A stretch of DNA of 55,727 nt, the filler included, from Sluysia triapertura (taxonomy: Eukaryota): NCBI GenBank assembly GCA_046118255.1. It is 4 parts of 4 records of this genome, joined end to end, with 100 filler letters (N's around TTAATTAATTAA, not from the genome) between each part and the next. Parts side by side here need not be neighbours in the genome. Positions count along the whole stretch, not along the records: positions 1 to 15,148 come from JBJNIA010237664.1; positions 15,249 to 27,105 come from JBJNIA010163482.1; positions 27,206 to 39,569 come from JBJNIA010116306.1; 1 more part is not named here. One strand, written 5' to 3'. Numbering within the stretch: the first letter of the stretch is position 1; each line of letters opens with the position of its first letter. The notes below the pieces were generated by a model. That model saw only the letters and a program-made list of their open reading frames with translations, searched no databases and was not told the DNA's origin. Positions 5,881-31,912 of this stretch are shown here, one piece after another. Position numbers and translations under genes: made by a program.

Positions 5881-5941
5881 AAAATCCTACGCGAACGTCC
5901 TATTTGACATAAGGTAAATCGTTTAGCGTAGGCGGACCCAG
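5881..5941 (-). other. Hairpin-family element, copy 1
   Basis: Minus strand reads CTGGGTCCG-CCTACGC-TAAACGATTTACC...ACGTTC-GCGTAGG-ATTTT, with stem CCTACGC/GCGTAGG. Confidence 0.65.
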
Positions 5942-6272
5942 AATTATAAAAAGTTGACATAATTGTTTAGGTAAAAGAAAACCGACCAGTTTAATGATAA
6001 ACATGTTTGTGTTTGTTTATGAGTTAGTCTTATTTCAGCTATCTTTTTAATTGAAGGATCATTATTTTCGACGTGTTTCAGTTCTTCGGTTAAGGCTTTT
6101 CTTGAATCTGTCATTTGTTCGATATTAAGACAATTATCTGTGGTCATTTTTGAATTTTTGTACTTTGCCAAATTTTTTACATATAAGAGATATTTTCATT
6201 CACTACTTTTTCATTTCCTTTTGAATTATTTATTAATATATTTTATTTATTAAAAACTTACTCTTTTCAGAC

Positions 6273-6410
6273 GATGACCAGTGATTGGTCATCCAACCAG
6301 AATTCTCTATGTGTAAATTAATGAAATTAATTCTGGTTGGATGCCAGTTACAAGAACAAAAATTTAATAAAATGGTAATGACGAATGATTGGCCATCATC
6401 AGTGTTGACA
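6273..6410. promoter_or_regulatory. CCAAT-rich module with inverted repeats
   Basis: GATGACCA/TGGTCATC inverted repeat (6273-6293), perfect 15-bp inverted repeat CATCCAACCAGAATT/AATTCTGGTTGGATG (6290-6304/6329-6343), and GATTGG motifs. Confidence 0.45.
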
Positions 6411-7730
6411 TAATAATGATGTTTGTGATGAGCAATGTCAACAAATTATACTGTTTTATGAAAATTTAATTAATAAATTTTTACATAAATAAATTGATAA
6501 TTTGATAATAATAATAATAATAACAATAACAATATTACTATTATTATTAACAAAGAAAAGAAAAATAAATAGTTATATTGTTTTTGAGTCTTCTAATAAA
6601 GAGTATTATATATAATAACACAAATAGATTTTTAATAAAATACTTAAATTAACATCTTCGCATCTTTGCATTGTGAATATACACCACCACTTTTAAAAAA
6701 TTATAATAAATTTAAAAGAACTTAATTGTAATACACAAATCAGAACCAGGAAGTAAGCAAAACCGATAACAAATACAAATATAAACCTCCAGTTTTTGAC
6801 TTTCTTTCAAGCTGCAAATCTATGTCTAACCCTTCAGTGAGTAAGTCCAGTATGATAGTGAACTTACAATAACTTAAAGCGAATATCCATTCTTAATCAC
6901 ACAAAATCTTCACATATATAATTATAACACAAAAAATAATTCATAATGTATAAAGTGATATGCTATTATTAAGATGAAAGAATTGTGGTGGCCAACCTTT
7001 TCTTTCAAAATTAAAAATCATTATTTTACATAAAATATCATATTTACTAACATCTTACATATTATTTTCTCAGATCTATTAAAATCTTTTCGCATTTCAA
7101 AAAATTTTAAATTCACAACCTTATAATATTAACATCATATTTACATTCAAAACCATTAACGTACATGTTAAATTTTATTAATTTGTTTTATTCACAATAT
7201 CACAACATTAGAATCACAATTTATATCTCAAATTATCAAATATACAATTCAAAACTAATCCAAAACATTTCGAGTTCATAATCCTTCAACACTCAATCAT
7301 TAACATCTGTGAAGAACATTAAAATCATATTCAAAAATCAATTTAAAACATCTTAATCAAAATGACATTTCTTTAATATATTTAGTTATGTATTATTTTC
7401 TTTAAAGATTCCTTTATCAGCTCTTCCAACATTACATATCTTCGTAATCACTGAATAAAGTCATTTCAAGGAAATTTCGAATTAAAATTAATATTTCAAA
7501 AAGCATTTAAAGAAAGAATTTCATTCAAAAGAATTTAAGCTAAAAGAAATGCATGATTTCGATGTAAACAATTTTAAAACAATAATATAAACTAGAATTT
7601 TATTAATATAATTCAAGATTTATATGTTAATAAGTTAATTTAAAAGAATCTCAATTAGTTTTTATTTTAAAGAAAAGAATGTTAGGAATTATAGAAAAAA
7701 AACTTTATGCGTTTAAATTTTTATATTATT

Positions 7731-7780
<50 letters not shown>

Positions 7781-29181: not shown

Positions 29182-29439
29182 TATATTATTATTATTATAT
29201 TATATAATTATTGTGATTTTTTTGAATCATAGTTGTACAAAAATTTAATTAAATAAATAAAAAGAAACTGCATTAAAAATAAATAAAAATACAATTTCAT
29301 TTCTATTTGATGTAAATAACAGCAAAGAAAGTATTTCAATTGTGTATTATTTTAAAATGTCACATGTTCTATTTCCAAATTGTATTGAGTTATCGCGATT
29401 CAAAATAACCAATCAAAAGTAAAAGTGTAATCAATGTTT

Positions 29440-30170
29440 AATATGAAAATTATTATTGGAAAATTTGTAGAAAAAAATGAATGTAAAAATAGAAAATATT
29501 ATGTTCATATTCAGAACTAGATCAACTGGTTAACAAGTGATTTGTGTCGCCGTGTATTATCTCGAAATCAAAAGAATCCCTATTTAAAATGACTGCAGTC
29601 GCCAAGAAAACAAATGTATAATTTTTTGCGAATTATTTGACTCAATGTTCAGAAGTTCATCCGATGCTGAAAATGTTGCTCAAATTTTTGTTGAAATAAT
29701 TAAACATTGGCATAGGACACTAAGGAAACTTTTAACAAACAGAGAAAACGTTGTGTGAAGTTAATATAGTAAGAACCTATGCTTCTCCATGACGGTCTTG
29801 TTGAAAGATTCAATAGAACTTTAACTAATATGCTTCAATCTTATGCAAATGATTTATAAATGGACTTATTAATCATGCTACTAGTTTTACACTTTCCACT
29901 TACTATATAGCAGATGCGCAATGTGTCCGCAGACTTAGAGTGGATTTTATCAACTCCACAATATTTAGAAATACCAGAATACATTACAATAATGCGTGAA
30001 AATTTACAAAGCAGGTTTACAAATGAAATATTCTCAAGAATCATATAAGGATGCTTATGATGCATCATGATTTTAAAATTTGAGATAAAGTTTTATTCGA
30101 TTATCCATTAAGAAAACCTGACTAAAAACTACACAAACCTTTTAAAGGCCCTCATGTAGTTACGGATCCA
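29440..30170 (+). mobile_element. Ty3/Gypsy integrase remnant
   Basis: DAENVAQIFVE...; DGLVERFNRTLTNMLQSY at ~29790-29845 is the integrase core signature (..G.VER.NRTL..ML). A KPFKGPH (GPY/F-like) stretch lies near 30140. Many stops are present. Confidence 0.75.
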
Positions 30171-31854
30171 AATAAGATTAAATCAAAACTTCTTATATTC
30201 ACATAAAATGAATATAATTTAAGAGATAGAAATGTTCGGTCTTAAAACAATGGAGATTTTATTTAGCGGTTGACAAAGAAATAATAGTTATGTTGAATTC
30301 TTCATTAAATTCATATTTTGCTATCCATATAATTCAAAGTATGCAATTAAATCAAAGGTGGATTGAGTAATTACTTTGTCAATTATAATACGCTACTTAT
30401 TTTGAAGTGTAAACAGAGTTGTACAATATCAAACTGCAACTTTTGACACAAATGATATGGGATAGTAGTCCATGTGAATTAATAATATGTTTAGATGTAA
30501 TTAACAATCTAGAAGACATAGAAATTCATACTAGGCGCGTATGTATTAAATTACCATTAGATTCTCGTGTAGTTTTACCACAAATAGTTTTGCCGTCTGT
30601 ATGTGCTAACAAAATCTGATACACAAGTTGTTACACATGATTTTATAACATCCTCAGAATCATCATCAGAGAATATGGATGATTCAGATGTAACATCAGT
30701 TTCTTCAGAAAGAGAATCGAATCATCCAACCATAAAGATGTTATTATTATTTTTCTTTGCAACACCTGACAGATAAACATCATAAGTAATTTCTTTACAA
30801 AAATGAACAACTCCGAAGAAGAACAAAAAGGTAAGTAATAAGTAATCTAACACTCGAATCTTGTTGGACCGGAAAGTGGTGCCACCACACTTCATATTGC
30901 ACGAAACACAAATTATTATTTGTAATGAGCTCTGTGAAAATCAAACATTTCTTGTTATGATTATTATGAAAATGATGCGTAAAGCAATAAATTTATAATG
31001 ATAATAATAACAATAATGATATTAATAATAAAAAATAAACAAAAAATAATATTAACCACTCACCTACTAGCTTCCAAGGAATACCTAGAAAATAAATGAA
31101 TTAAATTAGACAATAAAATGCATATTACTTTTTGCAAGATAATTAATTGATGAGTTCTGTGCTATGTTATTCTAAAATAAATAATTTAAAATTTAATGAT
31201 ATAAAAAACAAACATGTGACTGATTTCATTCATGTATAAATAGATTTGACATTATAATGCCCGACAAGACATAATAGTTTAAAAACACATTTTTCGATCG
31301 TTCTCTGGACAAGTTCTTTACAATTTGTGATCAGTTCTATTGGACGAGTTAATTATGTTATTCGACATGGGAATTCCGCTATGTAACATAATAGCACGAA
31401 ATTTTGTATCACAATATATTCTTGTGAACATTGCTGGAATATATTGTTGTGCATAACTATCTCGAATAGAAATTTATATAAGTGGTGATTGTTAAATTTT
31501 TATTTCGGTGTCACTCACACGGTTATTGACGAATATATCTTATTAAATCAGTTGCCTGAAGTTTTCATAAGTTTTATCTCTATTATGAGACATAAAATCT
31601 ACATAAACTACATTAATTGTTCAATCTTTTGTTTTCTGCTAAAAATAATTTAATTTTAAAAACTAAAAAATATATTTAGAATTTAATTGTTCTAATTATA
31701 ATATCGGTATCATTTATTATTATAATAATAATAATAATTATTATTATCATTATTATTATTATCATTATTATTATTATTATCATAATTATTAATATTATTA
31801 TTGCTGTGGTTCTAACTTAAAAGAAACTTAACTAGCAAAATATATTTTCTGAAG

Positions 31855-31912
31855 GTTAGTTCGACTAATTAGGTACGCTTTAAATCTGAGCGAAGACGTC
31901 CTAATTAGATTT
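31855..31912 (+). other. Hairpin-family element, copy 7 (divergent)
   Basis: GTTAGTTCG-A-CTAATTAGG-TACGCTTTA...GAAG-ACGT-CCTAATTAG-ATTT. Confidence 0.45.

Follow-up and report, generated by a model that had tools for sequence, protein, structure and literature searches.

Metazoan retrozymes, among the closest described systems, are built of monomers of about 300 bp with less than 45% GC, arranged as dimers to multimers (PMC7229834, in the portion of the text available), and dispersed monomers also occur (10.64898/2026.07.22.740005, likewise in its available portion). Flatworms are rich in ribozyme repeats: the hammerheads of S. mansoni number more than 38,000 (PMC2770079, available text). Here, we describe a family of stem-loops in a 55,727-nucleotide stretch of the Sluysia triapertura assembly GCA_046118255.1 (four parts of four records joined end to end, filler included; referred to below as the window). 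We show that eight stem-loops are homologous cores in which pairing is preserved, whereas identity in the flanks has fallen almost to the chance level. They form a real family of constrained structured cores, unannotated and matching none of the known families tested. As in the metazoan retrozymes without long terminal repeats (non-LTR retrozymes; type I hammerhead, Sm-alpha of Schistosoma), there is a non-coding unit of about 300 bp and low GC content with one GC-rich structured core per unit, a dimer is found together with lone units, and the sequence is species-specific. Unlike in those elements, no hammerhead core was found near any of the seven copies scanned, and tandem neighbours are nearly unrelated outside the core.

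Core anatomy is described on the strand assigned in an earlier reading of this DNA made by a model without database searches (the sequence-only reading), with stem registers set by hand. A 5′ motif, RGU(Y)YR, in which GT is invariant (8/8 copies), directly precedes an outer stem, P1, of 4–9 bp. Inside P1 lie a YA bulge, a second stem (P2, 3–4 bp), an internal loop with YUWA and a distal stem-loop (P3) with a stem of 2–4 bp and, in five copies, a GNNNA loop. Pairing is kept in 51 of 53 pair cells of P1 and in 29 of 30 of P2. Two details of the sequence-only reading need correction. The inner stem of core 10173 has one G-A mismatch, and of the 3′ T-run ascribed to most copies, at least three T residues directly follow the stem in six of the eight copies and at least four in four of them.

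Three features are new relative to that reading: a 5′ hairpin (P0), the distal stem-loop and an alternative helix of 9 bp. P0 is a short upstream hairpin whose 3′ strand is formed by the 5′ motif. It is present in all four copies of one subfamily, A (23 of 24 pair cells), in core 31855 and, from folding, in core 5881. Only in subfamily A does the 5′ motif also pair over 9 bp with an internal segment (35 of 36 cells, with seven G-U pairs and no A-C); this helix, which excludes P0 and P2, would make an H-type pseudoknot together with P1. At core 10173, three linked positions change together in such a way that pairing is kept in P2 as well as in the alternative helix. At core 6815, the 5′ motif GTAAGTTCA pairs 9/9 with the internal segment, and P1 is down to 4 bp.

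All seven cores of the sequence-only reading lie at the coordinates and on the strands that it gave, with the stems that it listed. They fall, together with an eighth, into subfamilies A (four copies) and B (four copies and a decayed one at 29122):

15674–15733, minus strand: A core (15673), with P0, the GTGAGTTCA motif, P1 (15716–15679), P2, P3 and the T-run
15369–15428, minus strand: A core (15369), in tandem with the 15673 core and 305 bp downstream of it
10162–10224, plus strand: A core (10173), carrying P0
6815–6875, minus strand: A core (6815), absent from the sequence-only reading, found with an A-only covariance model (E 0.013)
14913–14970, plus strand: B core (14913), with an 11-bp hairpin predicted upstream, at about 14864–14897
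13329–13385, minus strand: B core (13330), 76% identical to 14913 over 68 nt, with one bulge in P1
5881–5941, minus strand: B core (5881), with a longer P3 arm
31855–31913, plus strand: B core (31855), the most divergent, with a P1 of 9 bp and a P0 of 7 bp; not matched by the descriptor
29122–29161, plus strand: probable decayed B copy, with the 3′ strands of P2 and P1 gone (z 4.0 against 14913)

When the window was compared with itself by BLAST, pairs within A gave E values of 3e-12 (15369/15673) to 1e-5, with 7e-8 for 10173/15369. Within B, the 13330/14913 pair gave 1e-5, and 5881 and 31855 are more loosely related. A covariance model built from 10173, 15369 and 15673 alone returned 48 matches in the window, among which 6815–6876 (minus strand) ranked fourth (E 0.013) and the held-out core 5881 fifth (E 0.12); this brings the copies to eight. 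The 48 matches did not include cores 13330, 14913 and 31855, which makes the sequence link between A and B a weak one. A model of B made from sequence without structure retrieved nothing beyond its five input copies. A descriptor of the fold, written after looking at the cores, matches seven of the eight (31855 is missed) and two AT-rich sites; with at least two G-C pairs required, it gives seven matches, compared with a mean of 0.25–0.91 and a maximum of 2–4 in shuffled sequence (150 shuffles per block size, 300 in all). The copies had been called dispersed, but they are clustered: seven of the eight cores fall in a stretch of 9.9 kb that one scaffold gap interrupts (p ~0.001 if placed uniformly), and no core was found beyond 32 kb in the window. 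Candidates at 52357 (minus), 29883 (plus), 3060 (plus), 18359 (minus) and 24385 (minus) were inspected by eye and left out, as none of them scored with the A model. At 52270–52360 (minus strand), a hairpin comes before GAGTTCCA and a 10-bp stem after it; this may be a distant member, which did not score with the A model. A small hairpin region at 24360–24400 (minus strand), just past the stop codon of a PLP exon, contains TGGTCCG, TTTAC and GGATTTG and echoes B motifs, perhaps by chance.

The sequence-only reading had also claimed selection on structure. P1 occurs as six distinct sequences, and the pairing of each with its own partner ranks top of 720 permutations, for registers set by hand and copies chosen as hairpins beforehand. 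The A cores are 60–87% identical, whereas in their flanks, taken as 60 nt on the 5′ side and 100 nt on the 3′ side, identity is 46–57%, against a baseline of 50 ± 4% for 192 random pairs. The GC content is 39–61% in the cores and 17–33% in the flanks. Between the tandem neighbours 15369 and 15673, there are six changes in 12 distal-loop positions and none in the other 35 (Fisher p 9e-5, with region boundaries chosen post hoc). Since P1 strands pair best with their own partners, cores are better kept than flanks and changes avoid the stems, selection on structure is supported. Formal covariation inside A is not significant.

The claim that the hairpin sits in a shared unit of about 300 bp stands for subfamily A, while no pair of B copies reached z 3 downstream. 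Cores 15673 and 15369 are 305 bp apart on one strand, in a unit of 30% GC. The downstream alignment of 15673 with 10173 reaches z 5.5 (0/100 shuffles), and the 250 nt that follow 10173 align to the tandem spacer. At 10173, homology extends past the length of one unit and apparently ends with a decayed copy of the 5′ motif near 10490; this is a single case, and its alignment is uncertain. The bodies of the units and the sites of a flank motif are the following:

15429–15673, minus strand: body of the 305-bp A unit between the tandem cores, holding TGGAGGT and GGATCCTATGAAAA
10225–10500, plus strand: body of an A unit homologous to 15429–15673, with facing ACTTAACT / AGTTAAGT sites at 10276 and 10477
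5823 (minus), 10276 (plus), 10477 (minus), 13067 (minus), 13590 (plus), 14984 (plus), 15353 (minus) and 31826 (plus): ACTTAACT flank motif, near-core sites within 5816–31833

The sequence YTGRAGRT (21 sites in the window) follows all four A cores and core 5881 at a distance of 25–99 nt, and CCTATGAAAA is found at +139 and +143 in two units. Because such body motifs are shared downstream of the U-tract, a longer unit fits better than a gene that ends there. The near-palindromic ACTTAACT, a motif chosen post hoc, is common to A and B; eight of its ten window sites (2.7 sites expected) lie within 270 nt of a core, and 7.6% of the window is that close. The B copies share upstream motifs.

Our preferred reading, which we advance tentatively, is that the cores are the RNA domain of a retrozyme-like unit of about 300 bp and likely a processing site. 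An old family of short non-coding repeat units (~300 bp) would then behave like animal retrozymes, the core being its working RNA domain. The unit would be transcribed on the strand used here, because the non-standard pairs are G-U rather than A-C. Its core may switch between a chain of hairpins and the pseudoknot, and would mark a cut, at or close to the short linker that joins the 5′ motif to P1, made either by self-cleavage or by a host enzyme. Cuts at two successive cores would release a monomer of about 300 nt, which could circularise, and a helper retroelement could copy it back into DNA. The size of the unit, its GC content and its occurrence as a dimer and as lone units match metazoan retrozymes and so support it. 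With 305-bp tandem monomers, 30% GC and no Pfam match near the cores, the A units have the size, composition and non-coding character by which retrozymes are recognised. Of the identities offered by the sequence-only reading, the mobile-element or ribozyme-like one still fits best, although no known catalytic core is present. A bolder version appears improbable: the cores would be a new class of small self-cleaving ribozyme, driving a circular RNA element of the retrozyme kind in an animal genome, and each would be a bistable hairpin/pseudoknot of 55–60 nt that has no core of the hammerhead, twister, hepatitis delta virus (HDV), pistol or hatchet type.

A number of observations weigh against the retrozyme-like reading. 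Retrozymes are defined by the hammerhead, and there is no Rfam hammerhead match in the window; cores of the hammerhead, twister, hatchet, hairpin, pistol and twister-sister ribozymes were likewise not found within 400 nt of the seven original copies in an exact-match pattern scan that covered those seven. The flanks of the tandem neighbours are near-random (0.57 and 0.50). The two monomers of a rolling-circle dimer, in contrast, would be expected to be almost identical at first. The near-random flanks fit selection on each genomic copy, as for genes. Seven of the eight cores are clustered on both strands, the unit is seen for A and not for B, no target-site duplication was demonstrated, and no open reading frame (ORF) for a reverse transcriptase or a Penelope element was seen in the window. 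The new helices can arise by chance: P0 in 4.5% of copies with 6/6 pairs and in 26% with 5/6, and the 9-bp alternative helix, which by inspection is absent or partial in B, in about 8% for one lineage. The strand call is biased and partly circular, because G-U pairs were accepted in the search for P0 and the alternative helix; on the opposite strand the YA/C bulge becomes a G-U pair, and four of seven cores fold more stably, or nearly equally well, on that strand. Covariation inside A does not exceed that of shuffled alignments (251 and 127 of 500 shuffles). Folding z scores are modest, from +0.47 to −2.51 for seven cores on the strand used here and from +0.61 to −1.63 for 110-nt windows of the eight copies, in a background where 12% of 150 windows fall below −1.5. 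Hairpin stability by itself is unremarkable.

The sequence-only reading had suggested a scan of Rfam, and no catalogued family was found at any copy: the whole window at E ≤ 1 gave four matches, none of them at a core. Four sub-windows searched with Rfam 15 at E ≤ 10 gave 1, 6, 8 and 1 matches, all far below gathering; the 13330 copy was covered by the whole-window scan. For the hammerhead, none of 10 window sites of the form CUGANGA..GAAA and none of 23 relaxed sites lies within 400 nt of the seven original copies. HDV-like ribozymes are laid out as a nested double pseudoknot with P3/L3, P1.1 and a catalytic C in J4/2. Subfamily A resembles this layout in that a helix of 7–9 bp, starting with G, and a closing helix at the 3′ end are nested. 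It differs in that only 3–5 nt separate the partners of the two 5′ strands, too few for P3/L3; neither an equivalent of P1.1 nor one of J4/2 was seen by inspection, for which no descriptor search was run, and there was no Rfam match.

The order of helices recalls that of the hatchet ribozyme, with a 5′ hairpin, a linker of 2–3 nt and then a stem, interrupted by internal loops, and a distal hairpin, although a 5′ hairpin of this kind arises by chance at 4.5–26%. The conserved segments of the hatchet are C20-A22, U28-G31, G63-G66 and A73-A75 (PMC6561176 and PMC4604424, available portions, on which the comparison of layout also rests). The cores are shorter, have no conserved CAA linker and no UGGG, GCRG or AAA segments, and there was no Rfam hatchet match. 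In the twister, L4 reads GUNNNAAGC, L1 has UAA opposite GAGGG and there are two pseudoknots (PMC8501958, available text); none of four L4-like sites in the window is near a copy, and in the cores P2′ abuts P1′ with 0–2 nt between them. A minimal twister-sister-like ribozyme has an internal loop of 5 × 6 nt and a CA cleavage site between two stems (PMC11620745, available text), whereas the internal loops here are 2 × 0–1 and 5 × 1–3 nt. Y RNAs and the nematode stem-bulge RNAs (sbRNAs) share with the cores clustered short stem-bulge-loop units, a pyrimidine loop motif and a U-tail. They have, however, paired 5′ and 3′ ends, a bulged C, a GUG-CAC upper stem and a UUAUC loop (PMC4726728, available text), while the 5′ end of the cores is unpaired with the 3′ end, GUG-CAC is absent, YUWAC stands in place of UUAUC and there is no Rfam match. 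Likenesses to U1, U3 box A, L2/CR1 tails, attC and the Dictyostelium class I RNA were dropped, as they were inconsistent across copies and had no Rfam score.

The closest rival to the retrozyme-like reading, possible but less probable in our view, is a locally duplicated cluster of genes for RNAs like the small nuclear RNAs (snRNAs), of an undescribed class and with an RNA of 55–110 nt per copy. Such an RNA would hold a donor-like GU in its 5′ hairpin, present YUWAC, complementary to a GUAAG donor, in the second hairpin and use the U-tract as an Sm site or polymerase III stop, acting as a donor like that of a spliced leader (SL) or as a splice-site decoy. The presence of seven of the eight copies within 9.9 kb, on both strands, fits such a cluster, even though one copy and the decayed one are on another contig, 13–16 kb off, and the stems left intact in both tandem neighbours amid near-random flanks are explained better by it than by the retrozyme-like reading. 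The invariant GT and the other fixed unpaired bases resemble a donor, an anti-donor and an Sm site, but the donors in B (GTCC, GTTC) are poor. RAU4-7GR, with at most one mismatch, begins at the last P1 base in three of the eight copies (background 0.8% per position), while 13330 and 14913 have no clear U-tract and body motifs are conserved 20–140 nt downstream of it. Motifs recur roughly 45–60 nt and 24–35 nt upstream of P1, with a spacing that shifts by 10–15 nt, and no snRNA model of Rfam matches. That the copies are true SL RNA genes, or pseudogenes of such genes, whose leader would precede the invariant GT, is very unlikely, although the SL-like idea of the sequence-only reading retains a resemblance in layout: P0 holds the GT in 4/4 A copies and in 31855, and the second hairpin, P1, precedes the T-run in six of the eight copies; clustering of the copies is a further likeness. 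SL RNA genes occur in tandem clusters, and those of flatworms have AUG/GU and a UVUUUGG motif around a highly variable middle (PMC12582326, available text). Core 14913 reads GCATG/GT, the last five bases of the Macrostomum leader (PMC8629364, available text), ATG/GT is found in the decayed 29122 copy and AAG/GT in 13330 and 31855. These flatworm hallmarks are otherwise missing, with AUG before GU in one of the eight intact copies (and the decayed one) and UVUUUGG within 45 nt in none. The pattern of conservation is moreover inverted here: the stretch from donor to Sm site is the best-kept part and the would-be leaders differ between copies. Among the matches listed, no leader-like piece was seen attached to any gene of the window. 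Still more doubtful is that the cores are spliceosomal mini-introns of 33–42 nt in the transcript of the unit itself, with a masked donor, branch point and acceptor serving as a splicing switch. The pattern GTRAG(T/A)..CT(A/T)AC..YAG within 55 nt has four sites in the window, which are the four A cores, but it was written from them post hoc; three B copies read GT..YTTAC..TAG over 33–38 nt by inspection, with weak donors. P1 would pair the intron with the downstream exon, and the flanks are non-coding.

Two further explanations were considered. On the opposite strand, the cores could be terminal hairpins of non-autonomous rolling-circle transposons of the Helentron/HINE type, which we regard as unlikely. 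Read in this way, a subterminal repeat, AGTTAAGT, would be followed by a stem-loop near the 3′ end, and different families would keep both while their bodies differ; in Helentrons, subterminal inverted repeats (subTIRs) can be nearly identical between families that are less than 70% alike (PMC4067079, available text). The cores recall these DINE-1-like ends in the common near-palindromic motif of 8–10 bp beside the hairpin, with eight of ten ACTTAACT sites near a core in both subfamilies, and in the T-rich context; at 10173, two facing sites are separated by 200 bp, and a T-run precedes the outer one. However, HINEs have a palindrome of 5–10 bp that lies 8–35 bp from the 3′ end and a subTIR 38–60 bp from it (PMC4067079, available text), whereas the fold here is much longer (38–47 nt), has conserved internal loops and lies 18–62 nt (266 in one copy) from the motif, outside the published range, with homology extending 30–55 nt past it. 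Helentrons and HINEs have subterminal inverted repeats of 11–15 bp at both ends; a facing ACTTAACTAT / ATAGTTAAGT pair is present in one of the eight copies, and two have no exact site. A-C mismatches appear in P0 and in the 9-bp helix on that strand, and no RepHel ORF was seen in the window. The modest folding energies and the lack of significant covariation within A would also suit neutral quasi-palindromes, in which template switching would keep the two arms alike and so produce apparent covariation without function. This is the least probable of the alternatives, since the unpaired GT, YA, YTWA and AG are preserved, as is their spacing, G-U pairs remain uncorrected and the GC content of the cores stands well above that of the flanks.

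Relatives of the cores were sought elsewhere. A pattern scan of viral contigs gave one exact match, inside a capsid-like reading frame and taken as chance, and relaxed patterns gave 5 and 6 matches, none with a P1 partner. In metagenomes, a specific A pattern had no matches and a relaxed B pattern had 105, two of which pair fully in P1 and none of which has the core architecture; of these two, one is a plain 17-bp inverted repeat and the other has no P2, and both were rejected. The A model, run over 92 of 117 metagenome loci, gave two matches (E 0.68–0.94), away from the patterns. Two matches came from the pattern scan of prokaryote genomes, neither with P1. Since these collections are poor in animal DNA and matching was exact, they say little about other animals. 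Literature searches aimed at known families found no paper on the motif, which does not imply its absence from print.

The window as a whole has 25% GC and holds five N gaps, three of which are joins of the following build:

15149–15248, 27106–27205 and 39570–39669: 44 N, TTAATTAATTAA, 44 N

As the copies on either side of the join at 15149–15248 belong to different contigs, their tail-to-tail arrangement may not be real. Pieces of animal genes in the window are an SLC12 C-terminal exon, a Myelin_PLP exon, a Rab-like ORF and an exon of the Unkempt type:

2392–2655, minus strand: Unkempt-type CCCH zinc finger exon (Pfam E 1e-10)

Among named sequences, those of schistosomatid flukes are closest to the SLC12 exon (60–63%), followed by hemichordates and nematodes (54–62%), which suggests, weakly, that the host is probably a flatworm. 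The ORF at 2392–2655 gave the sole Pfam match among 143 short ORFs of the window, and three ORFs that overlap or flank core regions gave none. In Atlas, the PLP exon had Myelin_PLP as its lead at 0.84 and nothing else; protein searches with this exon as the query found no match. ARAGORN called no transfer RNA (tRNA) genes in the window.

Several other features were seen. At 20628–22560 there is a decayed hAT-like DNA transposon of about 1.9 kb, its family assigned by eye; it has what look like terminal inverted repeats (CAGGGGTCGGC / GCCGATCCCTG), and its transposase-like frames are broken. Between the 5881 and 6815 cores, a near-perfect 22-bp hairpin with an AT-rich loop of 27 nt (6272–6345, −27.3 kcal/mol) gives weak scores to microRNA families, below gathering, and may be a microRNA precursor or a miniature inverted-repeat transposable element; two smaller hairpins lie at 6340–6445. 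An acyl-CoA ligase-like fragment, recognised by eye and without a Pfam match, is fused to a tandem repeat of 48 bp × 3.9 at 893–1490 (plus strand). The intronless Rab-family frame at 40181–40500 (plus strand) runs into non-coding-like sequence and is possibly a processed pseudogene. AT-rich tandem repeats of 85–140 bp with a common GAACAAAAGAA core occupy two sites 2.4 kb apart (45960–46200 and 48500–48990), and a last exon resembling isocitrate dehydrogenase by eye lies at 52716–52830 (plus strand). The end of the window cuts off a tRNA-like stretch of 68% GC with a T-loop and a T-run (55646–55727, minus strand), not called by ARAGORN, for which a tRNA pseudogene or the head of a short interspersed element are candidate identities.

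Few natural classes of self-cleaving RNA are known. The animal retrozymes described in the available portions of PMC7229834 and 10.64898/2026.07.22.740005 are all hammerhead-based. If the retrozyme-like reading is true, a unit of this kind without a hammerhead would add a ribozyme class or reveal another processing route for small repeats. If the cores are snRNA-like genes instead, they would represent an undescribed family of small RNAs whose fixed unpaired bases mirror splice signals.

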